Shown here piece by piece: positions 1,841 to 64,000 of a DNA stretch of 64,000 bases. The notes under the pieces were generated by a model. That model saw nothing but the letters and a program-made list of their open reading frames with translations, did not search any database and was not told where the DNA came from. The stretch comes from a virus, in the IMG/VR virus record IMGVR_UViG_3300017761_005873, positions 65,261 through 129,260 of that record. The stretch is one strand, 5' to 3'. Within the stretch, counting starts at the first letter, position 1, and each line of letters begins with the position of its first letter. Both the position numbers and the translations under genes were made by a program.

Positions 1841-2137
1841 ATGATTTTAAACGAAATTTTAGAAAAAAAAATTAATTCTTTTAAAAAAGAAAAGAACGAA
1901 AAAATAATTGAAAGTATAAATTTTTTAGTTGATGAATTTGATAATTATCAAAACCAATTAAATGATTTAGTTACTGAAATTGAAAATCAACCATTTGAGG
2001 ATGATTTTTTCTTTAAAAACATAAAAAAGGATGATTATAAAAAAAGAGCAAGTTTAATTGAGGAAAAAATATTTTCAATTGAAAAGAGATGGTCCGAATT
2101 GGTACTCATTTTAAATGAACGACTTAACAAAAAATAA
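1841..2137 (+). CDS. hypothetical coiled-coil protein
   Basis: 98-aa ORF preceded by TATATTTA at 1827-1834. Confidence 0.55.
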   Translation: MILNEILEKKINSFKKEKNEKIIESINFLVDEFDNYQNQLNDLVTEIENQPFEDDFFFKNIKKDDYKKRASLIEEKIFSIEKRWSELVLILNERLNKK

Positions 2138-2144
2138 AATTTTT

Positions 2145-2175
2145 TTTGTAGTTTTTATTGTAATTATTATATTTG
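2145..2175 (+). promoter_or_regulatory. Bacteroidota-type housekeeping promoter (-33 TTTG, -7 TATATTTG)
   Basis: TTTG 2145-2148, 19-nt spacer, TATATTTG 2168-2175, ATG at 2181. Confidence 0.7.
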
Positions 2176-2180
2176 CTTAT

Positions 2181-3026
2181 ATGAAGAGAATTAACTCAAA
2201 CACGGTCAATATAACAAAAGACACATCCGATATTTTAAAATTATATCATCAAGAAATTAGGAAAATTGATGATATACCCAAGAGTAAGGAAGTAGATTTA
2301 TTTTATGAATATAAGGCAACAAAATGCCCAAACATTAAAAATTTATTGATTAATAATAATCTTAGATTTGTTATTAATGTTGCAAAACACTATCATAATA
2401 GTAGTTTTTATCAATTATCAGATGTAATTTCATCGGGAAATATTGGTTTAATAAGAGCCGTTGAAGAATTCGACCCAAGCAGAGGATTTAAATTTAGTAC
2501 ATATGCTGTTTGGTGGATAAGACAATCAATCTTAGAAGGTATTGCAAAAGAATCAAAAGCTATTAAACAACCTATTAAATTACATGCTGTAAATCAAAAG
2601 TTTTTAGATTTAAAAAATAAATTTTATAATAATTATGGGTTTGACCCAAACATAGAAGATATTAAAGAAGATTTATCCGAAGAAACCTCTTGCGAAATTT
2701 TAGCAAAATCAATATCAGCAATAGATGATAATAATATAATTTCAATATCTTCTCCTGTGTCTTCTTCATCTGAGGATATTATGTTTGAAGATATTCTACC
2801 ATCACCAATATTGGATGATAAATCAATATACTTTAATACAGATTTAAAATCAATATCTTTAAAGAATCTAAATAAAATTGAAAAATTAGTTTTAAGTTAT
2901 ACATATGGTTTAAATGATAAACCTGAAATAAGTTTTAATCAAATATCTAAATTAATTAATAAAAGTGAAAATGAAATTAAATCAATTCATGATAAAGCTT
3001 TAAAAATTATTAAAAATGATTTATAA
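2181..3026 (+). CDS. sigma-70 family (RpoD/SigA-like) RNA polymerase sigma factor
   Basis: Region 2 motifs NLRFVINVAKHY, GNIGLIRAVEEFDPSRGFKFSTYAVWWIRQSI and a region 4 HTH. Start moved from 2115 to ATG 2181 because the promoter lies in between. Confidence 0.92.
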   Translation: MKRINSNTVNITKDTSDILKLYHQEIRKIDDIPKSKEVDLFYEYKATKCPNIKNLLINNNLRFVINVAKHYHNSSFYQLSDVISSGNIGLIRAVEEFDPSRGFKFSTYAVWWIRQSILEGIAKESKAIKQPIKLHAVNQKFLDLKNKFYNNYGFDPNIEDIKEDLSEETSCEILAKSISAIDDNNIISISSPVSSSSEDIMFEDILPSPILDDKSIYFNTDLKSISLKNLNKIEKLVLSYTYGLNDKPEISFNQISKLINKSENEIKSIHDKALKIIKNDL

Positions 3027-10106: not shown

Positions 10107-10142
10107 TTTATTTCTTTATTTTAAATAGTATTTTTTTATTGT

Positions 10143-13136: not shown

Positions 13137-13178
13137 TTTATAATATAGTTTATTATAACTAGTTTTTTATTTTAAACT

Positions 13179-14138
13179 TTAATTAATTTTTATATTTTTA
13201 GCCAATAAATTTTCAATGTTTTGTAATTCCTTTCTTAAATCTTCTATTTTATAAAGAGAATTTTGTGAATATGTTGGAGGTATACTAGGATGTTGATGTA
13301 TATGATTTAAAAACACCTCTGTCAATGTTCTTAAATATTGAATAGTCAATTCTCCATAAAGCATTGATTGAGCATTTTTTTTTAATTCATTAACATCATC
13401 TTTTGTTATAGTTTTTTTAAATCTAAATCTACCTTTATGTGATATTAAATAAATTTCATCACCTGCTGTTAAACTGTATGAACTATTTTCATCTATAAAT
13501 TCTAAAATTGAATATACAGGATTTTGAAAATTTGGTTCGGATGGTTTATCTTTTTTATGTTTACCTGCTCTTAATTTAATTTTATTATCAGATTGTGATA
13601 TTTCAGTATTATTTCTACCAACAATATTAACTTCATTTACACCATTTTCATTATCAATGGGAAAAATAGTTCTTTCTGTATTTTTTTTATTTTTTGATTT
13701 AACTTGTAATGGGTCATAATTAATGCTTTTTGTTATAATAGAATTTGAACTTATATCATTAATTATATCTTGGGTATCATTTTTTATATATTCATAATTT
13801 GTTATTATTGGACCTATCCAAAATCTATTTGATAAAATTTGTGATTCTTTTTCTTTTTTTGCATCAGCAAAAAATACCAAAACTGCCTCACCAATTTTTG
13901 GCATTACATGAACAATTCTTGACATTAATGGATATACATATGGTAAAGAATCAATTGGTGTTTTTGATTGGTCTATACCACTAATAAATACTTTTATTCT
14001 TCCTGTATTATTATCATCATCAATACTTACAACTTTAGCAATATAAATATTTTTATTCAATGACAATGGTACATTTGTTCCAAATGAACTTTTTTGAAAA
14101 TTCTTACCATACGTTAATTCACCACCAATTTCAGACAT
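13179..14138 (-). CDS. baseplate spike/hub (gp5/VgrG-type OB fold)
   Basis: AKVVSIDD...GRIKV, PKIGEAVLV, RFWIG, C-terminal HIHQH. Confidence 0.75.
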   Translation of the reverse strand: MSEIGGELTYGKNFQKSSFGTNVPLSLNKNIYIAKVVSIDDDNNTGRIKVFISGIDQSKTPIDSLPYVYPLMSRIVHVMPKIGEAVLVFFADAKKEKESQILSNRFWIGPIITNYEYIKNDTQDIINDISSNSIITKSINYDPLQVKSKNKKNTERTIFPIDNENGVNEVNIVGRNNTEISQSDNKIKLRAGKHKKDKPSEPNFQNPVYSILEFIDENSSYSLTAGDEIYLISHKGRFRFKKTITKDDVNELKKNAQSMLYGELTIQYLRTLTEVFLNHIHQHPSIPPTYSQNSLYKIEDLRKELQNIENLLAKNIKIN

Positions 14139-26301: not shown

Positions 26302-28062
26302 TTAGATTACATCTAACATGAACTCAGAAGGTGATGCAGTTGGTAAACCTTGTACCAATACTTTACCATAGAACCTGTTGTTAACGACTTTTTTCGCATA
26401 ACGAGTCATGATACCCATTACAGGTTTGAAGTCAGCAGGATTAATGGTCTTAGGCATCAACATCAACGGAACGTATGGAGCGTAGATGTAACCTGCATGG
26501 AAGATTGAATCTCCTTTGTGTCCTATAAGAACAACACCAGCAGGAGCATAAGCATCAACATATACTGTGTATCTGTTAGCTACAGAACCAACTTTCTCAA
26601 TACCTAAAGAGAACTTAGTTTCTTCAGCAGAAGCATCAGAAGCATGGAAGTACTCAAGGTCATTAAGAACAGCAGCAACTTCAGGAGAACATACAACCCA
26701 GTTTGCACCACCACGAAGAGTAAATTTCATGATACGAGCAGAGATTTGATTAATCTTAGTAATCAACTCTTGGTTGTAATCTTTACGAGTAATTGCAAAT
26801 GATTGACCAACATTGTTAAATCTTCTATCGTATGCTGAGTAATCCCAAACTTCAACATGTGAAGCGGATTTACGAAGGTCACGAAGGATTTCACGGTCAA
26901 TTTCACCTGATACAACTTCAGAAAGAAGTGCAGTTAATTCAGCTTCTACGTCAATTGAGTGGAAAGCGTTAACGTCTTGCTGAAGTTCAGGAGTGAAGGT
27001 AGCACCTAGCATTCTCTTTTCAACAGAAACGTCAATAAAGTCAAATGTAAAAGTTACTTGAGGAATCTCAGCATCTTCTTCCATTGAAGAATATGTATTC
27101 CAAGTAGCCTGAAGAGTAGTTCCTGCAAAACCATTACCAACAGACTTAAGACCCATACCAGTATTTGTAGCATAAGGATTTGTGCTATAAACAGTTCCAG
27201 CACTTACAGGAGAATTAAGAATCAATTCAACATCAATGAAAGTAGTGTCTCTTTTAACGATTTCTTTTGCATAAGCTTGCATTGGAACTCTAAAAGGAAT
27301 TGGAGAACCACCTGCAATAATAGTAGAACCATCAGCTTGAGAAGTCAAAGCAGAAGCTGCTGTAATTTTCAAACTCATTAAGAACGACTCAGTATCAACT
27401 GCTGAACCAACAGGACCTTGTAATTTACCTTCAGTAGTATAAGAAAAACCACTAAGTCTAACTAATGCTCTTGCAGAAGGAGTTGCACTACCTACAGTAC
27501 CTGAAATAATTTGTACCGATACTTGATTTGAAGTAACTCTACCTTTAGTTCTGTCAAAAAGACCTCCAACATCATCAAAATCACTACCATTGTTGTAGAA
27601 TGAATCATACAATGAAGTAGTCTGATATGGAGTTCCACCAGTTTTTACACCACTAGAATTATAATTATCAGCAGCATTAGAAAGTACACCATCAAATGTA
27701 GAGTGTCTACCACTAGTTCTAGTAGAAATTTTAGGGTTAATGAAATACAAACGACCAATCGGCATGTTCATAGCCTGAACAGAAACGATTTCGTTTGCAA
27801 GTAATTTTTGGAAAACACGTCTAATGATTGGGAACGCAACTGTCTCAAATGAACCTGAAGATGTAGCATCAGTAGATTCATTGATTAAGTAAGACGCTTG
27901 GTTCTCATACAATTGAGCAATGTTTTCAGCCATATGACCTTCAAGGCCATCAAGCAAGCCAAACTGATTCCATTTTTCGGTAATCAATTCACGCTGTTCT
28001 CTAAGTTGTCTGTATTCTTGACCAACTTTTCCAGAGTTAAGGATTTCGGTAATTCCGTACAT
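26302..28062 (-). CDS. major capsid protein (T4 gp23-like)
   Basis: PIIRRVF..L.ANEIVSVQAM..P.G, ELQQD..A.H.ID.EAEL, EIDREI, YAPYVPL, GIMTRYA; probable processing site LINE|S at aa 62. Confidence 0.95.
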   Translation of the reverse strand: MYGITEILNSGKVGQEYRQLREQRELITEKWNQFGLLDGLEGHMAENIAQLYENQASYLINESTDATSSGSFETVAFPIIRRVFQKLLANEIVSVQAMNMPIGRLYFINPKISTRTSGRHSTFDGVLSNAADNYNSSGVKTGGTPYQTTSLYDSFYNNGSDFDDVGGLFDRTKGRVTSNQVSVQIISGTVGSATPSARALVRLSGFSYTTEGKLQGPVGSAVDTESFLMSLKITAASALTSQADGSTIIAGGSPIPFRVPMQAYAKEIVKRDTTFIDVELILNSPVSAGTVYSTNPYATNTGMGLKSVGNGFAGTTLQATWNTYSSMEEDAEIPQVTFTFDFIDVSVEKRMLGATFTPELQQDVNAFHSIDVEAELTALLSEVVSGEIDREILRDLRKSASHVEVWDYSAYDRRFNNVGQSFAITRKDYNQELITKINQISARIMKFTLRGGANWVVCSPEVAAVLNDLEYFHASDASAEETKFSLGIEKVGSVANRYTVYVDAYAPAGVVLIGHKGDSIFHAGYIYAPYVPLMLMPKTINPADFKPVMGIMTRYAKKVVNNRFYGKVLVQGLPTASPSEFMLDVI

Positions 28063-28112
28063 AATTTTTTAATGTTTTTAATTTAATTTAAATAGTAAGA
28101 TTTTTTCTGTTT

Positions 28113-30050
28113 TTATTTTCTCTTACCAAAATTATAGTTAAGTAATTGTTTAAACCTATTAGTTTCATCATTTTCATTGATTAAATTCTTTTCTGTGACA
28201 ATAGCATTGTCAGTTCTATGAACTTTACCAACTTTATTTTGTACTGATTCTTTTAGTAATGAACCATCTTTAACTGTTTGCCCTTTTGCAAACTCATTTG
28301 TTAATGAAATATAAGTTTCTTTAATTTGTTCTTTTGTTTGTGCATTTGCAAATCGATAAACAATTTCACTTTTCTCATTCTCTCTAAGAGGATGCTCAAG
28401 TAAGAATTTATTTACAAATCCTGCTTTTAATGCACTAATTGTTACATCATAGACTTTATTCTCTAATGATTTAACTTTATTTGCAAAACCTTCTTGAAGG
28501 TTTTTCTTTTCTGCTTCAAGTTTTTTAACTTTTTCATGTAAAGAAGTCATTTCTTCTTCATCCATATCTTCTTCAGAAACAAGAGTAGGTTTTGAACGTC
28601 TATCAGGTCTTCCTTGTGCAATAGCATCACCACCCATATTTCTTACAGATTTATGGGTACGGTCAAATGCACCACTTGCCTCCTCAAGTTCATCTTCTTC
28701 TTTCATTGTAGAAAGCATTTCTTCAATTTCAGCTTCTTCAGACATGTAATCTTCTTCAGGATTAACTTCAAATTTCATATTATTTCTAGATTTACCCTGA
28801 AAAGACATTCCTTCACCACCATCATCTTCAAGCATTTTGCTCATTTCTTCAAGTTCTTCCATAGACATCTCTTCAAACATTTCTTCAAGTTCATTACTTT
28901 GAGGATTTTTTGCACCTTTTTGTAGTCTATTCATTCCACTTGCTCTTTCAGAACGTCTCATAACACTTTCGTCTTCAACATCCATTTCAGCAAGCATTTG
29001 ATTAATTTGTTCATCAGTTAATTCTGAATCCATATAACCTTCATCAGACATTGGTTCATCATAATTACCTTCAGGCATATCAATTTCATACATTAAACCT
29101 TCATCTTCCATGTCATAACCTTCATCTTCCATGTCATAACCTTCATCATACATACCTTCTAATTGAGGTAGAGAATTAGTCCACTCATAATCATCACTAC
29201 CCATTTCATCTTCCATTTCATCTTCCATTTCATCTTCCATTCCATAGTTATCTTTAACGACAAAAGAATCATCTTCCTCCATATTATAATATGCTTCAAC
29301 TAATTTATTAAAGCTTACGTCTCTAAGGTCTTTTAGAACTTGTTTTTTAGTATTTTTCATTTTAGTATTATTTCTTTTAAAATTTTCATTTATTTTTTCA
29401 AAACTTTTTTCCTCTTCATCAGAATCCATTTCCTCTTCATCTTCAGGTTCTGCTAATACTTTATCATCAACATCAACATCTGAAAATTCATCTGAATCAT
29501 CAAATTCAATATCCTCTTCATCATCAGAATCTAATTCTTCTTCATCAGATTCCATTTCATCAGAATCCATATCCTCTTCATCATCAGAATCAGAAACTAA
29601 TTTAAATCCGTGTTCTTCTGCTGCTTTTCTTAGAGTATCTAAAGACATTTCTTCTTCATCAGATTCCATTTCATCAGAATCCATTTCATCAGAATCCATT
29701 TCTTCTTCATCATTATAATCTTCAAGTTCAGAAAGAATTTCATTCAAAGACATTTCTTTTTTCTTTGATTTTTTAGGTTTTTCTTCTTCCTCTTCTTCCT
29801 CTTCATCTTCTTCCTCTTCTTCTTCAGATTCCTTTTCTTCCTCCTCTTTTTCAGAGTCCTCATCTTCATCCTCTTCTTCTTCGGAATCATCTTCACCTGC
29901 AATTAATTTTTCAAACAATGCAGCAGATTTTTTTTCAAGCAAATCAGCACTTTCATTAATCAATTGCTCTTTGGCAAGTTCCAAAGATTCATTTTTAATA
30001 TTTTCAAGTTCTTGCAAACTATCTTGTAATAGAGATTTTTTATTTGTCAT
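28113..30050 (-). CDS. acidic prohead scaffold/core protein (gp22-like)
   Basis: Extremely D/E/M-rich, lies between protease and capsid genes, many [LIM]xE sites, C-terminal RFKQLLNY. Confidence 0.8.
   Translation of the reverse strand: MTNKKSLLQDSLQELENIKNESLELAKEQLINESADLLEKKSAALFEKLIAGEDDSEEEEDEDEDSEKEEEEKESEEEEEEDEEEEEEEEKPKKSKKKEMSLNEILSELEDYNDEEEMDSDEMDSDEMESDEEEMSLDTLRKAAEEHGFKLVSDSDDEEDMDSDEMESDEEELDSDDEEDIEFDDSDEFSDVDVDDKVLAEPEDEEEMDSDEEEKSFEKINENFKRNNTKMKNTKKQVLKDLRDVSFNKLVEAYYNMEEDDSFVVKDNYGMEDEMEDEMEDEMGSDDYEWTNSLPQLEGMYDEGYDMEDEGYDMEDEGLMYEIDMPEGNYDEPMSDEGYMDSELTDEQINQMLAEMDVEDESVMRRSERASGMNRLQKGAKNPQSNELEEMFEEMSMEELEEMSKMLEDDGGEGMSFQGKSRNNMKFEVNPEEDYMSEEAEIEEMLSTMKEEDELEEASGAFDRTHKSVRNMGGDAIAQGRPDRRSKPTLVSEEDMDEEEMTSLHEKVKKLEAEKKNLQEGFANKVKSLENKVYDVTISALKAGFVNKFLLEHPLRENEKSEIVYRFANAQTKEQIKETYISLTNEFAKGQTVKDGSLLKESVQNKVGKVHRTDNAIVTEKNLINENDETNRFKQLLNYNFGKRK
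29095..29710 (-). repeat. coding micro-repeats in the scaffold (DEGYDME, EDEM, DSDEM units)
   Basis: Tandem 21-, 12- and 15-nt units such as TCATCAGAATCCATT and TCATCTTCCATT. Confidence 0.8.
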
Positions 30051-30084
30051 TTTATTATATATCTATAATTAATTAGTAAAAAAA

Positions 30085-30786
30085 TTAAGATTTAATTATA
30101 TTTCTTATGGATTCATCATATTTTTTTACATTATTGTTTTGAATATTTACCGATTCTTGTAAATTATCATTTTTTGTTTCTAAAAATAAATATGCGTTAG
30201 GTGTAGAAGGTGTTGCAACAAGGTCAAAACAAATAAGTTCAAAATCATCTTGAACAATATTTTTTCCACCTACTTTTTTAACACTACCTAATCCTCTTGA
30301 AGAGATACCAAGTTTTAGATTTCTTTGTAAGTAAAGAGCAATCTTATCACCAATTGTCCAACCAATACCATCTCTTAGAAATGAATCGCTGACGATAATA
30401 TCAAGAGTTCCAAATACTGCATTACCTGACCACCAAGTTTTAGCAATTCTATGAGAAATGTTTTGTAAAGAAATTGTAACAGATTCTGGATGGTCAGCTT
30501 CATTAAGTGCTGCATTATCATTAATAAGTTTTTGATATTCATCTATTTGTTTTGCTAATATTTCTCTTGGATAAACTCTACCATTACGGTTTAGTACATC
30601 AGCTTCTTGAAGTTTGCAATCAATATAGAAATGACTATCAAAATCATTTTTTCTAACTTTTGAATTTAAATCTTCAAATATTCTTTTATTATTTAATGTT
30701 AAATCATTGCTAATAATACCTGCATCGGTTTCAACTAATAACCCATAACCTTCTTGTCCTTCTTTTAGTAGTTGCACTTCTTTCAT
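30085..30786 (-). CDS. prohead core protease (T4 gp21-like)
   Basis: NRNGRVYP, EADHPES, SHRI, GISSRGLGS, FDLVATPSTPNAY. Confidence 0.93.
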   Translation of the reverse strand: MKEVQLLKEGQEGYGLLVETDAGIISNDLTLNNKRIFEDLNSKVRKNDFDSHFYIDCKLQEADVLNRNGRVYPREILAKQIDEYQKLINDNAALNEADHPESVTISLQNISHRIAKTWWSGNAVFGTLDIIVSDSFLRDGIGWTIGDKIALYLQRNLKLGISSRGLGSVKKVGGKNIVQDDFELICFDLVATPSTPNAYLFLETKNDNLQESVNIQNNNVKKYDESIRNIIKS

Positions 30787-31550
30787 TATTTATTTGAATT
30801 TAAATTTTTAATTTCAAAAAGTTTGGACAAATTAGAAACTGCTGTTTCAGATTGATATTCTAATGAATCAATAAAATCAAATGTTTCTGTTAATACTTCT
30901 GAACTAATATTATCTTTTTCATTTAATAAATGTGTTTTTGTTGATTTCTTATATGATTCAAAAACTGTTTTTTTCTTTTTTTCATCACCCTTAATAAAAC
31001 TTGAAATAATTTCCATTTCATCAGGTTGAAGATTTGAGAATTTTTCTTCTAATTTCTTTTTAGCTAAATTAAAAATATGAGTTACTTTAAAAGTATTGTC
31101 TGATTTTTTAATTTGAATCTCTTCTTTTTTAGTTAATGATTCAATTAAAAAATTTACTGATTCATGTAATTTATTAACATTAGTAATTTTTTTTAAAACA
31201 CTTTCATTAATAACATTTTCAATATTTTCATTAAGTTTTAATTTATCTTCTGATAATTCAATTTCTTTTAAATTAAATTTTTCAAGTTTTTTGTTTTCTT
31301 TTAGTAATTCATTTTTTTCAATTTTAGATAAAGCAGAAATATTAGCCTCAATAAATCTTAATGATTCATTATAATCTAAATTATGTTTTTTTAAATTCTC
31401 ATAAATTGTATATTCTAACATTAGAACAGGCGATGATTTAATTGTTTTTAAAAACTCTTCATATAACTTTTTATAGTTATTAGTATTATCAATTAAATCT
31501 TGAGAATAAGCTTTATTTAATTTTGACTTAACATTACCAAAATTTACCAT
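30786..31550 (-). CDS. putative prohead core protein
   Basis: 254 aa between portal and protease; INES and LHES sites; late motif at 31567-31574. Confidence 0.6.
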   Translation of the reverse strand: MVNFGNVKSKLNKAYSQDLIDNTNNYKKLYEEFLKTIKSSPVLMLEYTIYENLKKHNLDYNESLRFIEANISALSKIEKNELLKENKKLEKFNLKEIELSEDKLKLNENIENVINESVLKKITNVNKLHESVNFLIESLTKKEEIQIKKSDNTFKVTHIFNLAKKKLEEKFSNLQPDEMEIISSFIKGDEKKKKTVFESYKKSTKTHLLNEKDNISSEVLTETFDFIDSLEYQSETAVSNLSKLFEIKNLNSNK

Positions 31551-31588
31551 TTTTTTGTATTTATTATAAATAGTATAAAATATTATTG

Positions 31589-33403
31589 TTATTCCTTTAT
31601 TAATTTATTTAGTTCATTAGTCTTTTTAAATATTTCTTCACTTAAAAATCCTGCACCACCTGGCGCACCACCACCTGCTTCAGGACCACCTCCCATTGGA
31701 GGACCACCACCTAATTCAGCACCACCTCCCATTGGAGAACCGCCACCTAATTCAGCACCACCTCCCATTGGAGGACCACCTAAACTACCACCTAGACTAT
31801 TATCTATTTGTTGTTGTTCACCTTGTTGTTGATTACCAACATTAAATCCTGCATTCTTATATTTAATCATTTTATCCATAAGACCTGAAGATTTAAGCAA
31901 CATACCTGCACCTTTAATTTCTTCACCAACTTTAGATTCAAGCATTTGCTCTTGAAGGTCATTAATAATATCTTCTTCAGACATATGGAAGAATCTTTTC
32001 TTAGCCATCATTTCTGACATTGGTTTAATGTTAGTTGCATTGTTTGGTGTAGTAGCAGCTTGATATACTTCTAATTTAGATTTCCAAATTTCAAGTTGAA
32101 GTAAGTCAGATGCTGTTGATGGATTATTAAGAGATAATTTAAAATCATCAATATATGATTCATAATCACCACCAAGTAAACCCAAATGAATAATTGCTAT
32201 TTTATTAAGTTCACCAAGTAATGCTTGTTGAATACGATTTACTTTTCTTGCAAAACGAATATCAAGCATTGATAAATTTTTACCACCTCCTTCACCTGTT
32301 GATTCAGATGAAAAACCAAGCAATGTTTTATGAATACCTAAACCTGTAAACAAATTATCACGAAGATAATTAATATCAGAAATTGCCTCAAGATTTGATG
32401 CACCTGGAAGTGTATCAACAAATTGACCTGATGAATTACCTCTATCAGCAATAAATATATCTTCATCCATTGAAGCGATATTATATTTAAAGTTAATATC
32501 ACCTGTTTTAGGGTCAACTAATTTCTTTTTCTTTACATTATTAGCAAATGCTTCAAGAATTTGTGGAACATCTTCAGGTGGAACATTACCAACAGGAACT
32601 TTATAAATTCTTCTTTCTGCTGCTCTTGTGATACGATAAACCATCATCGCATCTTCCATCATAAAAAGTTGCTTATATGTTCTTCTTACTTTTTCATATA
32701 CACTACAACCATACGGAAGTCTATCACCTGTACCTAATAATCTAAAGTGTGCAATTTGATAATCCATGTATTCTTCTTCACCACCTGAATTTGGGTCTTT
32801 GTATTTAAAGAATGCTCTGAATCTTTGTTTTGTGTCATATTTTTCATTTCTTTCAACAAATTGAGATGCAAGTTGTCTGAAATCTACAACACCATTTTCT
32901 TTTGAAAGTTCTAAATAAACAAAGTTATCCCCATATTGACACATATTTCTACACCAATAAAATATATTTGTATTAACATCCATAACTTTATAAAAGAATC
33001 TTTCAAGTTCTTTTTTAACTTTATCGGATGAACAATAAATATTTAGAATTTGTCCTGTATCACTTTTTGTTGTTGTTGCTTCTTCAGCAAGTAAATCAAG
33101 TGCAGCACCTAAAATTGGATATCCATCCATTGATAGATAATCATAGTAGAGCATCATTCTACTAGATTCATACATCAATTTACGTTGGTCATTACCTCTA
33201 TCAATTTTAGTGCTTTGGTTTCTATAAAACTTTATTGCACCATCTTCTACAGCCTTTTTTGTTGCCTCTTCTTGAGAAGCAGCAGTAATAAATTCTTTTT
33301 GAACAGGTGCTTCAAATCTACCCTGTGTACTATCTAAAGCATCAGTTGCTCTTCTAAAGAAAGTATTAATGTTTGAAAATAAGCCTTTATTATCATCTGC
33401 CAT
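31589..33403 (-). CDS. portal protein (T4 gp20-like)
   Basis: QLFMMEDAMMVYRITRAAERR.YK..VGN, EDIFI, TLPGASNL..I.DINY; Gly/Pro-rich tail. Confidence 0.94.
   Translation of the reverse strand: MADDNKGLFSNINTFFRRATDALDSTQGRFEAPVQKEFITAASQEEATKKAVEDGAIKFYRNQSTKIDRGNDQRKLMYESSRMMLYYDYLSMDGYPILGAALDLLAEEATTTKSDTGQILNIYCSSDKVKKELERFFYKVMDVNTNIFYWCRNMCQYGDNFVYLELSKENGVVDFRQLASQFVERNEKYDTKQRFRAFFKYKDPNSGGEEEYMDYQIAHFRLLGTGDRLPYGCSVYEKVRRTYKQLFMMEDAMMVYRITRAAERRIYKVPVGNVPPEDVPQILEAFANNVKKKKLVDPKTGDINFKYNIASMDEDIFIADRGNSSGQFVDTLPGASNLEAISDINYLRDNLFTGLGIHKTLLGFSSESTGEGGGKNLSMLDIRFARKVNRIQQALLGELNKIAIIHLGLLGGDYESYIDDFKLSLNNPSTASDLLQLEIWKSKLEVYQAATTPNNATNIKPMSEMMAKKRFFHMSEEDIINDLQEQMLESKVGEEIKGAGMLLKSSGLMDKMIKYKNAGFNVGNQQQGEQQQIDNSLGGSLGGPPMGGGAELGGGSPMGGGAELGGGPPMGGGPEAGGGAPGGAGFLSEEIFKKTNELNKLIKE
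31686..31783 (-). repeat. 33-nt coding repeats (GGPPMGGGAEL) in the portal C-terminus
   Basis: About 3 copies of CCACCTCCCATTGGAG...CCTAATTCAGCA. Confidence 0.8.
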
Positions 33404-44169: not shown

Positions 44170-45257
44170 TGAACTTTATTAATAATGTGGAATCACCCAA
44201 GTTTGATTTCCATGATATCGCTTTGATTCCATCCATTCTATCTAATATAGAATCAAGAAAAGAAATTAAGATGCCCAATCTTTTACCATTGATGGCATCA
44301 CCAATGAACTCTGTTCTTTCAATTAGAAAAAAAGATAGGTTTCATGAAGAGTTTTTAAATTCTTTACTTAGAGAAATGATGGTCTGTATTCCAAGAAATT
44401 ATGAATACAGCAGATATACTGAACTCTTTAAGCATAGCAGTCTTAACAAATCAATGTTTAAATCAATTTCATTGCAAGAGTTTAGATTGATTGAAACTAA
44501 TTTTGATAGTTTTGATAGTTTAGTACTTGAGGCAGAATGTATCTTAGTTGATATTGCAAATGGACATATGAAAAAACTTCTTGATTTATCTAAAATCTTT
44601 ATTAAGAAGTTTCCTAATAAACAAATAATGATTGGTAATATAGCTAATCCACATACATATGATGCATTTGCTAAGATTGGTGTTCATTATTGTCGTATAG
44701 GTATTGGTGGTGGTTCTGTATGTACTACATCAGCTAATGCATCTATTCATTATCCTATGGCATCATTGATTTATGAATGTAATAGTATAAAACAAGCAAA
44801 TTCATATAAATCTAAAATTGTTGCTGATGGTGGATTTAAAAATTTTGCCGATATTATTAAAGGTCTTGCCCTTGGCGCAGATTACATTATGTTAGGTTCA
44901 ATTTTAAATAAATGTTTGGATTCCGATTCTTATCCTTATCTTTGGAAAAAAATCAAAATTACTAATATGAATTTGGCAAAGTGGCTTTATAAAAATAAAT
45001 TCTCTTTGTATAAAAGACATGTTGGTATGTCCACAAAAGAAGTACAAAAGATTTGGGGTAATTATAGACTTAAAACATCCGAAGGTATAGCCAAATGGAA
45101 TAAAGTAGAATATACATTTGATGGTTGGATTGAGAATTTTAATGATTATCTTAAAAGCACAATGAGTTATTTGAATTGTGCAAATTTTAATGATTTAAAA
45201 GAAAAAGCTAATTTCATATTCATTACAGAAAATTCATTTAGAAGATTTCATAAATAA
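44169..45257 (+). CDS. GMP reductase / IMPDH family oxidoreductase
   Basis: FDFHDIALIP, ASPM, VDIANGH, RIGIGGGSVCTT, IVADGG, ALGADYIMLGS, TSEG, LKSTMSY. Confidence 0.85.
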   Translation: MNFINNVESPKFDFHDIALIPSILSNIESRKEIKMPNLLPLMASPMNSVLSIRKKDRFHEEFLNSLLREMMVCIPRNYEYSRYTELFKHSSLNKSMFKSISLQEFRLIETNFDSFDSLVLEAECILVDIANGHMKKLLDLSKIFIKKFPNKQIMIGNIANPHTYDAFAKIGVHYCRIGIGGGSVCTTSANASIHYPMASLIYECNSIKQANSYKSKIVADGGFKNFADIIKGLALGADYIMLGSILNKCLDSDSYPYLWKKIKITNMNLAKWLYKNKFSLYKRHVGMSTKEVQKIWGNYRLKTSEGIAKWNKVEYTFDGWIENFNDYLKSTMSYLNCANFNDLKEKANFIFITENSFRRFHK

Positions 45258-45262
45258 CAATA

Positions 45263-48200
45263 ATGGCAGTTAGAAAAAAAATTACTTACAAGACATTTAA
45301 AGATGAACAAGTAGAAAGGTTTTTAAATGGTAGGAATAAAAATAGAAAACATATTGTATGTATTCAAGGTAGTAATTATTCTAATGAAATTAATTTAGTT
45401 ATTGATGATATTGAAAATAATAAAAAAGAAAGTGTAACTGAAGTATATAAGCCTTTTATTTATGTTAAAGACTTAGATAAACTTGGGATTCCTTTTTATG
45501 AAAATAATTCTGAAGAAAAAGTAGAGAATAAAAGGAAATATAAAATTAGTTATAAAAAACTAAAAACTACTGATAATAATGGTGCTGTAGTCGATAGACT
45601 TGAACAAGGTTATAAATATATATTCTATACTGATTCTGCATATGGAATGAGAGATTTACTTTTATTCTTTAGACACGGTGGTATAGATGTTCATTGGAAA
45701 AAAGATGAATCATTTACAAAAGAATTATTCAATCCTGATACCAATCAAGATGAACCATTTATTTATGATACAGAAAACCAATCAATAGTTTACAACACAA
45801 TTTCAGAAAATTATGAAATAATCATTAAAAATATTCATAAAGTTGTTTATAATTCTATTCAAGTAAAATATACTGGAGAATTTACTGAAGAAGATAATAT
45901 AGATGATGAAAATGAATTAGATGATTTTATTGAAGAAAAACCAAAACCAAAGGAAAAAAATAATTCATTAAAAAAGTTAGGGTTATTTCATAATTATGAA
46001 ATTTTCAAAGATAAAGATGTTTATAGAATTATCTTTAAAGATAAATTAAAAGCAGGTGAAAGTATTAATATAACCTATCAATTATCAAATAGAAATCTTT
46101 TTTATAGTTTAAAACCTGAAGAACAATTCTTAATACAAAATGGTATTAGAATGTTTAATGGTTATAAAACTTATGATGAAGTTCATAAATTTGTATTTGA
46201 TATTGAAACCACAGGTCTTAATCCAAATAGAGATAGAATATTTGCAATAGGTTGTAAAGATAATCGTGATTTTGTTTCAATTAACTTTGTTAATGAAATG
46301 GATAATAACGATGAAGAAAAAAGACTAATTTTAGATTTCTTTAGAATTATTAATAGATTAAAACCTGCAATTATTTTTGGATATAATAGTGAAGATTTTG
46401 ATTTTAACTTTATACTTACTAGAGCAGCATTGTTAGGTATTGATATTAATGAAATAAAAACAACCTACAAATTAGATAAACATATTAAAAGAATAGAGAA
46501 TTCATCTCTTAAAGTTGGTAATGAAACAAAATATTATACCAAAACATCAATGTATGGTTATAATGTTTTAGATATTATTCATGCTGTATGGAAAACACAA
46601 GCGATTAACTCAAATATGAAAGAGGCAGGTTTGAAATATGTCTGTAAATTTGCAGGTATTGCTAAACCTAATCGTATGTATGTTAAGAATGGTGCTAAGA
46701 TTTATGAAATGTGGAGAGATAATAAAAACTACATTAACAAATCAACAACTAATGAATATGAATTAATACCTGATGAATATCAAGATAACCCTATTAATTA
46801 CCTTTTAGAAAATTCTGAATATGATGAAATCATAAAAGGTAAACAAATCATTGAACAATATCTTAGTGATGACTTATGGGAAACATTGGAAGTTGATAAA
46901 CGATACAACGAATCAACATTCATGCTTTCAAAACTTCTTCCAACATCATTAGAAAGAACTGCAACTATTGGTGGTGCAGGTTCATGGAATCTTATTATGA
47001 CTGCTTGGAGTTATGAGAATGACCTTGCAATACCATATACACCAAACAAGAAAGAATTTACAGGTGGTCTTTCAAGAACATTCAAAGTTGGATATTTTGA
47101 AAATATATATAAAGAAGATTATGCAGGTCTATATCCTGCTATTCAACTTGAGCATTATGTATTCCCAAAACATGATATAACCAATATTCTATTTAGACTT
47201 TTAAGTTACTTTAAATTTACAAGGGATAAATATAAGAAATGGGGTAAAGATGAAACACTTCCTGAATCAGAAAGAAAGTTTTATGATACACTACAACTTC
47301 CAATTAAGATTCTTAATAACTCAAACTTTGGTGCGTTTGGTTCTGAATACTTCAATTGGGCTGACTTTGATTGTGCTGAACGTATTACTTGTACAGGTAG
47401 ACAATATCTTAGAAGAATGATTCATTACTTCATGCAGTTTGGAGCGATTCCTATTACTGAAGATACTGATGGTTGTAACTTCTCTGTACCTGAATATACA
47501 AATATTAATTTAAATTTTAATAAGTTAGATACACCAATAAAAATTAGTGATTTAACATATGAATATGAAGGTGTAACATATAAGGGTGTTGATGCAATGG
47601 TTGAGAAATTTAACAATGATATCATTGCAGGTCAATATATGAAACTTGATAATGATGGTATGTGGATTTCTGCTGCTAACTTCTCAAGAAAGAACTATGC
47701 TAATCTTGAATATTCAACTCTTGAAGATAAGAATAAGAAAAAGATATTTAATATACCAAAAGAATATTTAGGAAAAGAAGATGAATACTTTAAAGAATAC
47801 GCAGAGAAGAACTCTTATTTGGGAGAACAAACTAAAAATCTTAAAATTAAGAAATCAAAGCCAAAGGTCACAGGTAATACAATCAAATCTAAAACGATGT
47901 CGGAATACATTGAGGATTTTGTCAATGAAGGAATTAAGCTTATTCTCACAAATAAGCCTAAACAATTTATAGAATTTTATTATGAATATCTAACAAAGAT
48001 TTATTGTAAACAAATACCAATTAAAAAGATTGCATCTAAATCAAGACTAAAACAAACCGTTGAGGAATATCAAAATAGAGGTACGGATGTAAATGGTAGA
48101 GCAAAAGCTAAACAAGCACATATGGAATTGCTTATTGCACATAATATTAACACAAGCGGTATGGACTTTGTTTATTATGTAAATAATGGCACAGCCAAAT

Positions 48201-52090: not shown

Positions 52091-52113
52091 ACTATTTATA
52101 ATAAAATTATAAT

Positions 52114-52584
52114 ATGAAAACTAAAAGATTAACTTTGGAATCATTTAAATCTGTTGTAAAAAAAATTATTAAAGAAGAAATGAATCCAAATGATAAAAAA
52201 TTTCACCGTGAAAATGTTATTAATTTAGATGGTGAACCTATTAAATTAATAGTTACAAATTTAAGAACAAATGAAAATCAAAATATTCAAGGTACAATTA
52301 ACCACATTAATGATTTTGAAGGTAGTTTTTCTCCAAGTGGTTTTTGGTTAAATCCTGAAAAAAAAGGTATGTATGTTATGTACGATAGAGATAGAAAAAG
52401 ATGGGTTAATGGTAATAGTAATGCATATATTGAAATAAACGGTGCATCACCAAATGATACATTTTTACTTGATAAAATAAAAGAAACTATACCTGAATAT
52501 AATGCACGATGGAGTTCTAGTGATTTAATTCAGAAATATTCTAATATGCCACAATTAGAAGAATCTAAAAAAAGAAGAAGATAA
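52114..52584 (+). CDS. putative head-packaged protein with conserved leader
   Basis: Late motif at 52091-52098; MKTKRLTLESFKSVVKKIIKEE leader; ends LEESKKRRR. Confidence 0.6.
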   Translation: MKTKRLTLESFKSVVKKIIKEEMNPNDKKFHRENVINLDGEPIKLIVTNLRTNENQNIQGTINHINDFEGSFSPSGFWLNPEKKGMYVMYDRDRKRWVNGNSNAYIEINGASPNDTFLLDKIKETIPEYNARWSSSDLIQKYSNMPQLEESKKRRR

Positions 52585-56493: not shown

Positions 56494-57171
56494 ATGAAAA
56501 TCTTTGCAATTTCAGATACTCATGGAAAGCATGAGCAAGTTCAAATACCTGAAGGTACTGATATGCTTATTCATGCAGGTGATTTTTCAAATATAAAACT
56601 TCCTGCAATGAACCATAATGAAGTTAATTTATTTTTAATTTGGCTTGAACAACAACCTGTTAAATATAAAGTGATTATTGCTGGTAATCATGATACTTCT
56701 ATTGAAAGTAGATTCATTACTAAAAAAGATTTTAAAAATAGAGGTATTATCTACCTTGAACATGAATCTATTGAGATTGAAGGAATTAAAATATTTGGTT
56801 CTCCATATACTCCCGAATATCATAATTGGGCTTTTAATCGCACAAGGGCTAAACTTGGAAAAATTTGGGATTCAATTCCTGATGATACAGATATCTTAAT
56901 TACTCATGGTCCTCCTAAAGGTATTTTAGATTCTGCATCAAGAGATAAAAATAATCATGAACATGTAGGATGTTCTGCTTTACTTAAAAAAGTTTTAAAA
57001 GTAAAACCTAAATATATGATATTTGGTCATATTCATGACAATGGTGATAATTTAAACAATGGCATGTTTAAATTAAATGAATATATAACAATCTTTGCAA
57101 ATGTATCTTGCGTTAAAGATGGTGATAACTTACCATTTGTACACAATGGATATAGTTTTGATTACTTATAA
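56494..57171 (+). CDS. calcineurin-like metallophosphoesterase (MPPED/239FB-like)
   Basis: ISDTHG, HAGDF, IAGNHD, GSPYTP, ITHGPP, FGHIH. Confidence 0.85.
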   Translation: MKIFAISDTHGKHEQVQIPEGTDMLIHAGDFSNIKLPAMNHNEVNLFLIWLEQQPVKYKVIIAGNHDTSIESRFITKKDFKNRGIIYLEHESIEIEGIKIFGSPYTPEYHNWAFNRTRAKLGKIWDSIPDDTDILITHGPPKGILDSASRDKNNHEHVGCSALLKKVLKVKPKYMIFGHIHDNGDNLNNGMFKLNEYITIFANVSCVKDGDNLPFVHNGYSFDYL

Positions 57172-58112
57172 CCAATTTGACCTAATAAAGTACTTAAACT
57201 AGTTAATAATCTTTGTTTAGGCATTATTTGAGGACCATATTTTTTTTGGTCAACACCTTGCATTAAAGTTATAAATTGTCCATTAAATTCAGAAGGTGTA
57301 TCAACTTGTGTTAAAGTTTTTTTCTGTTGTGTATTTCTTTGTGTTTGACTAGTAGTACTTTGTTTTAAAGCTGCTGTTGAAAGAGATGATTGTGGTGCAA
57401 ATCCTGTACTACCAATAGGTGTACCTCCCATTGCTGTTTGCTCCATTAACATTTTGCGAACCATTGCTTTTAATTGAGATTCTGTAATTAAAACTTTTTT
57501 CATATTACTTTTATTGTAATTAGTGAATTTAGATTCAGTCATTGTATTTTGTTTATTTAAATTAATATTACCAATTATATTTTTTATTATCTGATTTTTA
57601 TATGGTTCTATTAAAACTTTATATACAAAAGCAATAGTTCCAACTATTTTAATTAACATTTCAAAAAATTGATATATAGAATCAAGAGTAATATTATTCA
57701 TTAATTGAGAATGTAATATCCCATCAAACCATTTTACTAAATCAGGTATTTTTGTAAAGTTATTAATATAAAAAGATGTTGTACATGCTAATACTGATAA
57801 ATATACTAAATTTTTTAAACTAGCTGTATTATTTAATGTTGTTAAAAATTTATTTAAATAATCATTATTAATCTTATTAATATTTCTTACAATTGAATCT
57901 TTTATTTGACTTAAATAATATTGTAACGCTTTATTATTTGTTAATAATTTTTTATAAAAATCACCTATTTCCTTTACAGTTTTTATATTGTCAAATAATT
58001 GATTAGAAAAATCACTAAAAATGTTTTCATTTAAATCTTTATTCTCCAATTCTAACATTAATGAATTGCAAGACTCTATAAACCTTTCCCTTTTTTGAAA
58101 ATCTTTTGACAT
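57162..58112 (-). CDS. putative head-packaged protein; in-frame fusion containing a second gene starting at 57503
   Basis: Late motif at 58123-58130, DLNE site, two hydrophobic segments; internal late motif at 57517-57524 before MKKVLITESQLKAMVRKMLMEQ. Confidence 0.6.
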   Translation of the reverse strand: MSKDFQKRERFIESCNSLMLELENKDLNENIFSDFSNQLFDNIKTVKEIGDFYKKLLTNNKALQYYLSQIKDSIVRNINKINNDYLNKFLTTLNNTASLKNLVYLSVLACTTSFYINNFTKIPDLVKWFDGILHSQLMNNITLDSIYQFFEMLIKIVGTIAFVYKVLIEPYKNQIIKNIIGNINLNKQNTMTESKFTNYNKSNMKKVLITESQLKAMVRKMLMEQTAMGGTPIGSTGFAPQSSLSTAALKQSTTSQTQRNTQQKKTLTQVDTPSEFNGQFITLMQGVDQKKYGPQIMPKQRLLTSLSTLLGQIGYK

Positions 58113-58149
58113 TTTTTTATTGTAAATAGTAAAATTATAAAAAAAAGTA

Positions 58150-58174: not shown

Positions 58175-58258
58175 GTCAGAGTGATGGAACTGGTAGACAT
58201 GCAGGACTTAAAATCCTGTGGCAGCAATGCCGTAAGGGTTCGATTCCCTTCTCTGATA
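58175..58258 (+). tRNA. tRNA-Leu(UAA), CCA not encoded
   Basis: Acceptor GTCAGAG/CTCTGAT, anticodon arm CAGGA-CTTAAAA-TCCTG, long variable arm, AAGGG-TTCGATT-CCCTT. Confidence 0.93.
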
Positions 58259-58263
58259 CATAA

Positions 58264-58337
<74 letters not shown>

Positions 58338-58340
58338 CAA

Positions 58341-58654: not shown

Positions 58655-59128
58655 ATGAATTTATCAAAAAATCTTGCACTTTTTGAGATGACAAGAAACT
58701 CAACTGCTAAAAGAAAAGGTGTTAGTAATGAACCAACTCCTCAACATATTCAAAATATGAAAGTGTTGGCTGAAAAAATATTTGAACCTATTAGAAGACA
58801 CTTTAATACACCAATTCATATTACTTCAGGTTATAGGAGTGAAGCTTTAAATAAAGTAACTCCAGGCGCATCTAAAACTTCTCAACACTCTAAAGGAGAA
58901 GCAATTGATATTGATATGGATGGTAGTGGTTCTAAAATTACCAATGCTGATATATTTAATTGGATTAAAGATAATTTAGACTTTGACCAGCTTATTTGGG
59001 AATTTGGCGATGAAACAAATCCTAGTTGGCTACATGTATCATATAATACAGATGGACCACAAAGAGGTCAAATATTAAAAGCATCAAAAGGTGTGTTTGG
59101 TACTAAATATACACCCTATACATCTTAA
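58655..59128 (+). CDS. peptidase M15A-family endolysin (D-Ala-D-Ala peptidase fold)
   Basis: ITSGYRS, SQHSKGEAID, FDQLIWE, WLHVSY; late motif at 58632-58639. Confidence 0.85.
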   Translation: MNLSKNLALFEMTRNSTAKRKGVSNEPTPQHIQNMKVLAEKIFEPIRRHFNTPIHITSGYRSEALNKVTPGASKTSQHSKGEAIDIDMDGSGSKITNADIFNWIKDNLDFDQLIWEFGDETNPSWLHVSYNTDGPQRGQILKASKGVFGTKYTPYTS

Positions 59129-59737: not shown

Positions 59738-60550
59738 TTAATAACCACTTTTTATAAGGGTTGTATTTCTTGGTCCTTTACTTACATCAAGACTAGAATT
59801 ATTTCTTCCTATTAATATTTTAAAAAGGAATTTTTTTAATATATCATCACTCATTGTTACATTTTTAATAGGTAAAACTACATCTGAACCAAATGCAGAC
59901 TTTAATCTTTGTAAAAACAATTTAAATCCTTTTTCTTCACCTTGATATCCACTTGGTACTTGGAAAATACCCCTAACATTTTTACCACCAAATCTAGAAG
60001 AATCAATAATCATTTGTGAAAATTGGTTTCTTAAATCATTGATTACTTCAGGTGTAATTATATCACCAATACCTTGATTTATTAAATCAGGTCTTTGACC
60101 AATATTTCTATTATCAATAAGATTTCTAAGTCTTTCTACATTATTATAATCAATATTTAATTGAATTGCTGAATCTATAAACTTAGATTGATTAAAAATA
60201 GTTTCCATTATATCATCTACTTGTTCAGCATTTTTAAAATTAATCGAATTACTATCAACCATTAATTTTTCTTTACTATACGAAGATGGAAAATTCCATT
60301 TACCTTTTGGTTCTACATCTTGCGCCATACTTGATGTTGATAACCCTCCTGCTAATGCAGCACCAAGTCCTAATTTTTTAAAATCGATTTCATTTAAATT
60401 TGATTCTTCCCTTAACATCTTTCTGATTTCAGACCTAAGTTGGCTTTCCGTAATCCTAACAGTTTTTTTCTTTTCGAAATTATTCTGCTCTTCCTTAATA
60501 ATATTTTTTACTAAAGATTTAAACTGATTTAAATTAATTTTTTTTCTCAT
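59738..60550 (-). CDS. putative head-packaged protein with double leader and internal signal-peptide-like segment
   Basis: Late motif at 60564-60571; FKSLVKNIIKEE...ITESQLRSEIRKMLREESNLNE then IDFKKLGLGAALAGGLSTSSMA-Q. Confidence 0.6.
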   Translation of the reverse strand: MRKKINLNQFKSLVKNIIKEEQNNFEKKKTVRITESQLRSEIRKMLREESNLNEIDFKKLGLGAALAGGLSTSSMAQDVEPKGKWNFPSSYSKEKLMVDSNSINFKNAEQVDDIMETIFNQSKFIDSAIQLNIDYNNVERLRNLIDNRNIGQRPDLINQGIGDIITPEVINDLRNQFSQMIIDSSRFGGKNVRGIFQVPSGYQGEEKGFKLFLQRLKSAFGSDVVLPIKNVTMSDDILKKFLFKILIGRNNSSLDVSKGPRNTTLIKSGY

Positions 60551-60604
60551 AATTATTTTTTTATAAGTAGTTATTTTTATAAAAAAACGTATTATATTTA
60601 GAAT

Positions 60605-63176: not shown

Positions 63177-64000
63177 TTACATCATCCTATTCTTTATATT
63201 TTTTAATTGATTATTTAACTTTGTTAAATTATCACGAACCATTTCATTAAATATATCTGATATCCTTTTCCATTCCTTTCCCGATGTACTACTAGTAGTA
63301 TTATATCTAGAAAGAAGATTTTCTGAATTAAGTTTACTCTTAAATTCATTTTCATTTAATAACCCATATGTTACTGCCATATTTATATCACCAGGTTGTA
63401 CTAAACCATAACTAATGTTTTTTAAAATCTCATCACTTATCATAATCTTTTTTTCTAACTGTTTTACATATTTTTCAAATTCCCCCTCATATGGAGCATA
63501 ATCCCTTGGCTTAAATGCTAAATCATTATCCTCATCACCCATGTTAACCTTATCATATACATCTGTATCACTCATCTCTCCACTCTGCATGTAATTTATA
63601 AACTGCTCACATATCCTCTTAAACTCTTTTGCATTTCTATTAAATCTATTTAACCTATAATAAAAACTCTCAACCTCATCCCTTGTTAAAAAATTCTTTA
63701 TAAACTCCTTTAACTCATTTCCCCTTTCCCTTATATCCTTTGAATTCCTCTTTAATTTAAACTTATTTGCCATATAACCCAATATCATACCATATAACCT
63801 TTCCATCTTTTTATTAAATGGTATGTTCTTTGACAAATCACCCACGTCACTTACCTTTAATCCCTGACTACTCCTAGCCTTTGATAATGATGATGGACTA
63901 TCTAAATTTATATCCCTGTATTTTGCCAAATCATTCATACTTCCATATGACCTGTTTATTGCCTCCTTTATTAATCCTCTTATAATATTTTTTATATTCA
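63177..64000 (-). CDS. putative head-packaged protein; frame is open to the window edge
   Basis: The frame upstream of ATG 63938 reads (xTG)NIKNIIRGLIKEAINRSYGS, so the start is probably at 64001 or beyond. Confidence 0.6.
   Translation of the reverse strand, partial: NIKNIIRGLIKEAINRSYGSMNDLAKYRDINLDSPSSLSKARSSQGLKVSDVGDLSKNIPFNKKMERLYGMILGYMANKFKLKRNSKDIRERGNELKEFIKNFLTRDEVESFYYRLNRFNRNAKEFKRICEQFINYMQSGEMSDTDVYDKVNMGDEDNDLAFKPRDYAPYEGEFEKYVKQLEKKIMISDEILKNISYGLVQPGDINMAVTYGLLNENEFKSKLNSENLLSRYNTTSSTSGKEWKRISDIFNEMVRDNLTKLNNQLKNIKNRMM

Follow-up and report, generated by a model that had tools for sequence, protein, structure and literature searches.

The window analysed here, the whole stretch of 64,000 nucleotides (nt) at positions 65,261 to 129,260 of IMG/VR virus record IMGVR_UViG_3300017761_005873, covers the latter half of a viral contig of 129,260 bp with 26% G+C. 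It carries on its minus strand an open reading frame (ORF) of 270 residues, the target of this study, in which a leader of two modules and a candidate prohead-protease site precede a segment that resembles a signal peptide and a domain that would begin at Gln77 (Table 1). The first 85 residues of the ORF are identical to those read in a preliminary description of this DNA, which drew attention to L-N-E, IDFKKLGLGAALAGGLSTSSMA with its S-M-A, and the following Gln; all of these are found exactly, and the span given there (60320-60550) corresponds to residues 1-77. The ORF matches no Pfam or PHROG family.

Table 1. Coordinates of the target gene, its parts and other features of the window (numbering of the window)
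Feature	Position	Strand	Remarks
Target ORF, whole	59738..60550	(-)	270 residues, ATG start; stop codon 59738-59740
Leader module 1	60488..60550	(-)	residues 1-21, ends I-K-E-E
Leader module 2	60404..60454	(-)	residues 33-49, ITESQ type, ends L-R-E-E; predicted helix 35-49
L-N-E	60389..60397	(-)	residues 52-54; candidate T4-type prohead-protease site
Signal-peptide-like segment IDFKKLGLGAALAGGLSTSSMA	60323..60388	(-)	residues 55-76: KK n-region, Gly/Ala/Leu core, S-M-A c-region
Mature domain (predicted)	59741..60322	(-)	residues 77-270, 194 residues, begins at Gln77 (QDVEPKGKW)
Promoter-like motif CTACTTATAA	60561..60570	(-)	first base 20 nt upstream of target ATG; C-at-position-4 variant of aCTATTTAtAATAAA
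Promoter-like motif, positions	60561-60570, 58120-58129, 52092-52101, 31564-31573, 13153-13162, 10119-10128 and others
Second leader ORF	52114..52584	(+)	156 residues, module-1 type, ends I-K-E-E; promoter-like motif 22 nt upstream
Third leader ORF	57162..58112	(-)	316 residues, ITESQ module internal at 209-225, M-K-K-V-L before it, L-M-E end; promoter-like motif 17 nt upstream
Fourth ORF, leader-like stretch	63177..63998	(-)	stretch ends I-K-E-A; ORF runs off contig end
tRNA-Leu(taa)	58175-58259
tRNA-Arg(tct)	58264-58338
M15 endolysin	58655-59128
S77 (T4 gp21-type) prohead protease	30085..30786	(-)	proposed leader-cutting enzyme; PF03420, E 9.6e-24
Head module	26302..33403	(-)	portal, 254-residue core protein, protease, 645-residue acidic scaffold candidate, gp23-type capsid protein

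The preliminary description took the leader for two copies of one unit. Two related modules are indeed present, but only 5 of 17 residues are identical between them (residues 5-21 against 33-49), and as judged from the sequence they are two related module types and not a repeat, each type being found on other proteins as well. The leader is net basic (14 Lys and Arg against 8 Asp and Glu) and contains three candidate cleavage sites of the form [LI]xE, namely I-K-E, L-R-E and L-N-E. The AlphaFold model of the whole protein, with a predicted local distance difference test (pLDDT) score of 58, shows helices at residues 7-27 and 35-49 and leaves the signal-like segment disordered. The mature domain (22 kDa, isoelectric point 9.05, no Cys) is modelled as an alpha/beta domain with a pLDDT of 82 and a predicted template modelling score of 0.80. 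Fold searches with the whole-protein model return at best a VIA Z of 4.7, which concerns the leader helices only, and BFVD rows with E of at least 0.12; those with the mature domain give no match (Foldseek PDB best E 0.77, VIA wide best Z 4.0), the many winged-helix domains among the Z-3 rows of its VIA list being too weak for use, and the ESM Atlas gives no usable match for the target. The modelled mature domain may represent an undescribed fold.

A word-indexed protein search finds 17 homologs of the target with 54-97% identity, and a profile search of 1.84 billion representatives finds only 9 proteins, including distant members whose C-domain is 21-33% identical to that of the window protein. 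No related locus is confirmed in viral_contigs or metagenome_contigs. We examined 25 family sequences, 22 of which have a scorable N-terminus; P0015 and P0027 are fragments, and P0023, which failed the Gly/Ala filter, shows the same arrangement by eye. The 22 scorable members belong to one family, and counts over them are not independent. All 22 keep LxE (LNE, LKE, LEE, LDE, LSE or LGE, with variable x and flanks), and in P0003 and P0016, where its position is shifted by a few residues, it is still present. In every one of the 22, LxE is followed by 5-12 residues with a net charge of +1 to +3, by 14-18 uncharged Gly/Ala/Leu-rich residues, and by a small-x-small triplet (SMA, SMG, AKG, VSG or GMA) and Gln. 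The spacing from the Glu of LxE to this Gln is 22-26 residues, which is the ordinary length of a Gram-negative signal peptide. The order of LxE, basic stretch, uncharged core and small-x-small-Gln, for which the preliminary description had proposed a search of homologs, is thus common to all scorable members. In the distant members the N-terminus is the best-conserved part, above the C-domain, and the retention of the signal-like arrangement through divergence to 21-33% C-domain identity argues for selection on it.

Some proteins show further arrangements. P0025 (401 residues) has two homologous domains, between which L-G-E opens a unit that continues with a basic stretch and an uncharged core and closes with L-K-A before Gln (the script took LGG as the cleavage triplet; by eye it is LKA, before the conserved motif), and the protein resembles a polyprotein. 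P0007-P0009, P0011 and P0013 (about 400 residues) begin with an additional domain that has a leader of its own, and their internal leader retains M-K. In P0020 (232 residues) a complete double leader forms the C-terminal end, and no cargo follows it. The end of P0020 and the 400-residue forms look like signs of cassette-like shuffling at leaders.

The resemblance of the segment to a signal peptide exceeds chance only weakly in the single sequence, but it does exceed chance across the family. A loose n/h/c heuristic with Gln at +1, applied to 127 ORFs (41,590 residues), passes four sites: two N-terminal signals, the target site and one other internal site. A hidden Markov model (HMM) of the segment, run against 580 ORFs of the window's phage (G000) and its relative G002, matches the target only, and this profile is too family-specific to gauge signal-likeness. 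The family cores, uncharged for 14-18 residues in 22/22, have mean Kyte-Doolittle values of only 1.0-1.8. The segment does not stand at the N-terminus of the precursor; it starts at residue 55 in the target, at residue 25-35 in the short homologs and near residue 185-205 in the 400-residue forms. A later start at Met45 was considered and rejected: the n-region would then be acidic and 15 residues long, and the short homologs have no such Met. These short forms contain no Met in the interval from the leader to the hydrophobic core, so that a later start cannot render the signal N-terminal. A twin-arginine translocation (Tat) signal is rejected as well, RR being replaced by KK, K-x, R-N or R-K in the 22 listed n-regions, and so is a lipoprotein signal for signal peptidase II, because the target contains no Cys and hence no lipobox Cys at +1.

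Gln at +1 fits the Q-rule, as the preliminary description suggested. The part of PMC5837995 that deals with this rule describes Gln at +1 of Bacteroidota signal peptidase I substrates, and Gln occupies this position in all 22 scorable members. Among the ORFs of G000 and G002, 19 have an N-terminal signal- or anchor-like stretch; four of these were judged by eye to be cleavable type I signals, and small-x-small then Gln is found in 4/4. Two plain N-terminal signals in the window's phage stand without a leader, which shows that the leader is unnecessary for ordinary export. A D-S-A triplet in the downstream part, which had been read as the Bacteroidota O-glycosylation sequon, does not hold up. 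It occurs once (residue 126), at least one such triplet is found in 41% of composition-matched shuffles, and homologs have DSS, DTS or DTP at this place; for these two reasons, its frequency in shuffles and its lack of conservation in the family, we ascribe it to chance.

The leader is not confined to the target family. The double leader of the target also heads two unrelated acidic proteins (P0018 and P0019) and ends a third (P0020), and the module-1 type also heads two unrelated proteins of other viral contigs. In the window's genome, a leader-module HMM matches only the target (twice), ORF 57162-58112 and, weakly, ORF 52114-52584. ORF 57162-58112 has in addition a hydrophobic stretch at residues 102-110 and a Ser/Thr/Gln-rich tail, and may be processed into two parts. 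The N-terminus of ORF 63177-63998 is unseen because the ORF runs off the contig end. An N-terminal module always begins at residue 5, after M-K-x-x, and internal leader copies often retain M-K, a trace of fusion.

We scanned IMG/VR with a degenerate DNA pattern for M-K-x-[VI]-I-T-E-x-Q and found at least 138 loci; the counts that follow refer to the matches listed, which contain 138 distinct N-termini and at least 93 clusters of unrelated downstream cargo. The Ser, Ile and Thr codons vary in the conserved leader residues, which indicates selection on the peptide. [LI]xE with its Glu at residues 12-20 is present in 61 of 93 clusters, with a peak at residue 15 (34 clusters), compared to 87 of 571 non-leader ORFs of G000 and G002 (odds ratio 10.6, Fisher p 8e-23). 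Pfam families are matched by 11 of 90 cargo representatives, and the kinds include three phage lysozymes (two with LysM), an M23 peptidase with a peptidoglycan-binding domain, a SleB-type hydrolase, sigma-70 region 2, and four matches to families of unknown function. Five of the 11 Pfam-annotated cargos are cell-wall hydrolases; the gp5-like baseplate spike protein of the window (13179-14138, minus strand; OB-fold match only, E 0.0011) has no lysozyme domain. A hydrophobic stretch of any kind is found in 5 of the 90 representatives. The loci (L001-L138) are often tandem arrays of small genes, for example L051:1001-2651, L011:328-1585 and L042:1001-1955. The leader strings IITESQ, VITESQ and IITETQ do not occur in the best-ranked literature matches, which are unrelated.

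The leader also keeps company with a particular protease. Large records with leader genes (269-309 kb, 96-100% complete) encode an S77 protease (PF03420) in 4/4 cases, compared to 0/14 control genomes; the exact leader pattern has 1-5 matches in each of the large records, and the reversed pattern has none. In G002, whose capsid protein is 44% identical to that of the window, 9 of 450 ORFs are of the strict leader type; they cluster at 4-5 kb and 275-301 kb, looser variants adjoin the capsid gene, and no homolog of the target is found in this genome. We consider it probable that the leader is a packaging tag removed by the protease, like the capsid-targeting sequence (CTS) of phage T4.

By its gene content the phage itself is a T4-like myovirus, with genes for a gp23 capsid protein (E 9e-70), a gp20 portal, a large terminase, a sheath and a tube. 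Its 129-kb record probably lacks part of the genome, since a 97%-identical protein sits on a 235-kb contig and the ends do not join: they carry no terminal repeat, and joining them does not extend ORF 63177-63998. The order of the head genes in the window matches T4 genes 20-67/68-21-22-23. Measured against composition-matched shuffles, [LI]xE is enriched in the 254-residue core protein (13 occurrences, z 2.8, the second highest density of 122 ORFs), in the 645-residue scaffold candidate (21 occurrences, z 2.2) and in the protease of the window (z 3.0); for T4, the same script gives z 5.1 for gp22, 3.2 for gp21 and 2.1 for gp68. The specificity of the protease is plausibly conserved between T4 and the window's phage. 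A predicted complex of the scaffold candidate, the 254-residue core protein and leader residues 1-56 has a score of 0.00, which carries no weight either way. The nearest cultured capsid relatives include Flavobacterium phages (38% identity), and these relatives, together with Gln in 4/4 plain signals and the Q-rule as given in that part of PMC5837995, make a Bacteroidota host likely. Outside the window, a 737-residue protein of the same genome (G000:C1, about 45025-47238, minus strand) has several Gly-rich hydrophobic segments at residues 533-600, which resemble tape-measure or ejection proteins.

The target gene shares a promoter-like motif with structural genes of the phage. Sequences close to aCTATTTAtAATAAA have 29 matches in the 129-kb genome, 19 of which are 15-29 nt ahead of the start of an ORF on the same strand, against an expected share of 2.9%. 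They precede the genes for the tube, the sheath (G variant), the 254-residue core protein, the portal and the endolysin, and ORFs 52114 and 57162. The copy before the target is less certain, because neither of the other two C-variant matches has an ORF behind it. G002 contains a related sequence, [CAT]TATTTAT, which is found in the 35 nt before 62 of its 450 ORFs and before 4 of the 9 leader ORFs. The common motif suggests a shared, probably late, regulon; it gives no means of telling virion proteins apart from proteins for lysis or other late functions. aCTATTTAtAATAAA may be the late promoter of the phage, which encodes its own sigma factor (2115-3026). Called from its first ATG, this sigma-70-like ORF (plus strand) is very hydrophobic at residues 9-23 (Kyte-Doolittle about 3.9), and it overlaps the ORF before it; either translation really begins at the Met at residue 23 or the sigma factor is membrane-anchored. 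Leader genes 57162-58112 and 59738-60550 flank the two tRNA genes and the M15 endolysin gene, the target gene being 600 nt from the latter.

The arrangement in the target is real, conserved and unusual, and the mechanism that we propose for it is partly supported. The target would be a late cargo protein whose modular leader acts like the T4 CTS and takes the protein into the prohead core, where the S77 protease would remove the leader at [LI]xE sites, the last of them L-N-E. This cut would leave a 22-residue Sec-type signal at the new N-terminus. The protein, presumably unfolded, would then pass into the next cell along with the ejected DNA, be exported there by Sec and be cut before Gln77 by signal peptidase I, and the 22-kDa basic mature domain would be released into the envelope of a Bacteroidota host. 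If the leader is CTS-like, the signal-like unit can act only after maturation, and the conserved small-x-small then Gln is the reason to favour Sec and signal peptidase I for the last steps. We infer packaging, cleavage, ejection, export and a role of the mature domain; that all of packaging, maturation cut, ejection and Sec export in the newly infected cell take place is possible, and we put it forward tentatively. We also speculate that the weak hydrophobicity of the core, which fits post-translational Sec targeting, could delay membrane entry until packaging. Of the preliminary suggestion that head maturation exposes a Sec signal, what stands is the T4-like phage with its S77 protease, the modular leader that ends in [LI]xE, and the 22-26-residue signal anatomy left by the cut; what does not is the sequon, and the weakly hydrophobic core and the equal fit of direct export count against it.

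A number of observations weigh against this course of events. The core of the target has a mean Kyte-Doolittle value of 1.73, compared to 2.10 and 3.49 in the two plain signals of the same phage. The first domain of P0025 has only a degenerate, unusable signal, which indicates that the domain need not be exported to function. In 32 of the 93 cargo clusters listed, [LI]xE is absent from residues 12-20, and the L-x-E of a conserved amphipathic helix could be kept for reasons other than proteolysis. The Pfam-annotated cargo includes lysozymes, an M23 peptidase and a sigma-70-like protein, which normally work without packaging. The signal-like unit is found behind the leader in none of the 90 other cargo representatives listed, which confines the arrangement to one narrow family, and cultured phages contain no homolog of the target (only rows with E 0.6-1). 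We know of no earlier case of an ejected phage protein being exported by Sec. Finally, the signal-like part is explained equally well if the cell that makes the precursor exports it uncut.

Such direct export is about as likely as ejection followed by Sec export, which leaves it, too, short of an even chance. Leader and segment would together form a long basic extended signal or a cleavable signal-anchor, which Sec would insert so that its N-terminus stays cytoplasmic and which signal peptidase I would cleave ahead of Gln77; the mature domain would work late in the periplasm of the infected cell, for example in lysis timing or superinfection exclusion, and the shared leader would have another role common to many late proteins. 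The conserved n/h/c anatomy and small-x-small then Gln need only the ordinary Sec pathway for this, and the net basic leader fits the positive-inside rule of membrane insertion. The short distance to the endolysin gene, which has the same promoter-like motif, agrees with such a role, and N-terminal extensions before classical signals exist in autotransporters as the extended signal peptide region (ESPR). Direct export, however, gives the best-conserved part of the protein no function. It does not account for the LxE that invariably stands directly ahead of the basic n-region, nor for the L-G-E unit inside P0025; the phage's two plain signals do without a leader, and the leader stands mostly on proteins without a hydrophobic segment (85 of the 90 cargo representatives listed).

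Packaging and the cut at L-N-E could also be followed by a different last step, which we regard as unlikely: the Gly/Ala-rich N-terminus would insert itself into the inner membrane as an ejection helix, without Sec or signal peptidase. The preliminary description had mentioned a helix of this kind as the alternative to its signal. The evidence for a CTS-like tag serves this proposal as well as it serves Sec export, the core is Gly/Ala-rich and weakly hydrophobic with G-x-x-x-G-like spacing, and the segment would come to stand at the N-terminus only through proteolysis, as in class I viral fusion peptides. A bare helix, however, does not explain small-x-small then Gln conserved at 22-26 residues from LxE while the residues of the c-region vary, and the segment is short (14-18 uncharged residues) and disordered in the AlphaFold model. 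It is improbable that the segment is an unused remnant or linker left when recombination fused a secreted-protein gene behind a leader cassette: the leaders are clearly shuffled, internal copies keep their former N-terminal M-K, P0020 ends in a leader without cargo and the family is narrow, yet an unused segment should decay, whereas this one is the best-conserved part where the C-domain is 21-33% identical, and LxE re-appears at shifted positions in P0003, P0016 and P0025.

If the leader is a capsid-targeting tag, it would be the second such system after the CTS of T4, and a much broader one. It would then allow the injected proteins of a large group of uncultured jumbo phages to be listed by sequence, and it would be a candidate tag for loading foreign proteins into Bacteroidota phages. 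A signal peptide activated by maturation, if true, would be a new route by which a pre-made protein reaches the envelope of a fresh host before phage gene expression. If ordinary export is right, the family still has an unusual extended signal, and the widespread leader is left without explanation. As a generalization that we hold with considerable doubt, a group of T4-like Bacteroidota jumbo phages might use one leader of 15-25 residues (M-K-x-I-I-T-E-S-Q ... [LI]xE) as a universal capsid ticket for about a hundred kinds of cargo, including cell-wall hydrolases and a sigma-like factor, and in one family the cut might unmask a cryptic Sec signal by which the protein, once delivered through the tail, is re-exported into the periplasm of the next cell.

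Among known systems, the internal proteins of T4 are the closest. The portion of PMC9026906 on these proteins describes them as unrelated to one another, with an N-terminal CTS of 10-19 residues, entry into the prohead core and a gp21 cut after L/I-X-E, and it reports that foreign proteins fused to the T4 CTS are packaged and ejected. The CTS of ipII and ipIII (MKTYQEFIAE) ends in I-A-E at residue 10, and ipI has I-T-E at residue 19. The leader of the window resembles the CTS of IPI, IPII, IPIII and Alt in being a short N-terminal peptide on unrelated cargo with an [LI]xE end; compared by eye only, the two have a common start M-K and the [LI]xE end, with no evident similarity beyond. T4 and the window's phage also share a head module of the gp20-67/68-21-22-23 type and the S77 protease. 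The tandem arrays of leader genes in viral contigs recall the variable internal-protein loci of T4, and T4 ipII/ipIII/ipI adjoin the endolysin gene e and a tRNA cluster, as the leader genes of the window do, which is a weak positional echo. Unlike the T4 CTS, the leader of the window is longer, sometimes doubled or internal, and stands on at least 93 cargo types. We know of no T4 internal protein with a signal peptide behind its CTS.

Phages of the phiKZ type offer a second comparison. According to the relevant portion of PMC9026906, many head-internal proteins of phiKZ, 201phi2-1 and SPN3US are cut after Glu by a gp21-related protease, and phiKZ-type propeptides carry redundant cleavage sites. 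The two or three [LI]xE sites of the target leader would match the redundancy described there. The window's phage differs from these phages in being T4-like in its head genes. To our knowledge, the sites cut in those phages are of the form S/A-X-E, and no one leader sequence is common to their proteins.

The signal-like segment has parallels of its own. It resembles the Sec signals cut by signal peptidase I in Bacteroidota in its basic n-region, uncharged core, small residues at -3/-1, Gln at +1 and length of 22-26 residues, and differs from ordinary signals of this class in being internal in the precursor and in having a core less hydrophobic than the plain signals of the same phage. The autotransporter ESPR is a conserved N-terminal extension of about 25 residues ahead of a classical signal peptide, and in this it resembles the leader of the target. 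The ESPR is known only with signals of type V secretion proteins, whereas the leader of the window stands mostly on proteins without any signal. In class I fusion peptides, T7 gp14-16 and the ejection proteins of P22, a Gly/Ala-rich hydrophobic stretch becomes N-terminal only after maturation cleavage, as the segment of the target would, which is an analogy only. These fusion peptides and ejection segments lack a signal-peptidase motif, whereas the target family keeps small-x-small then Gln.

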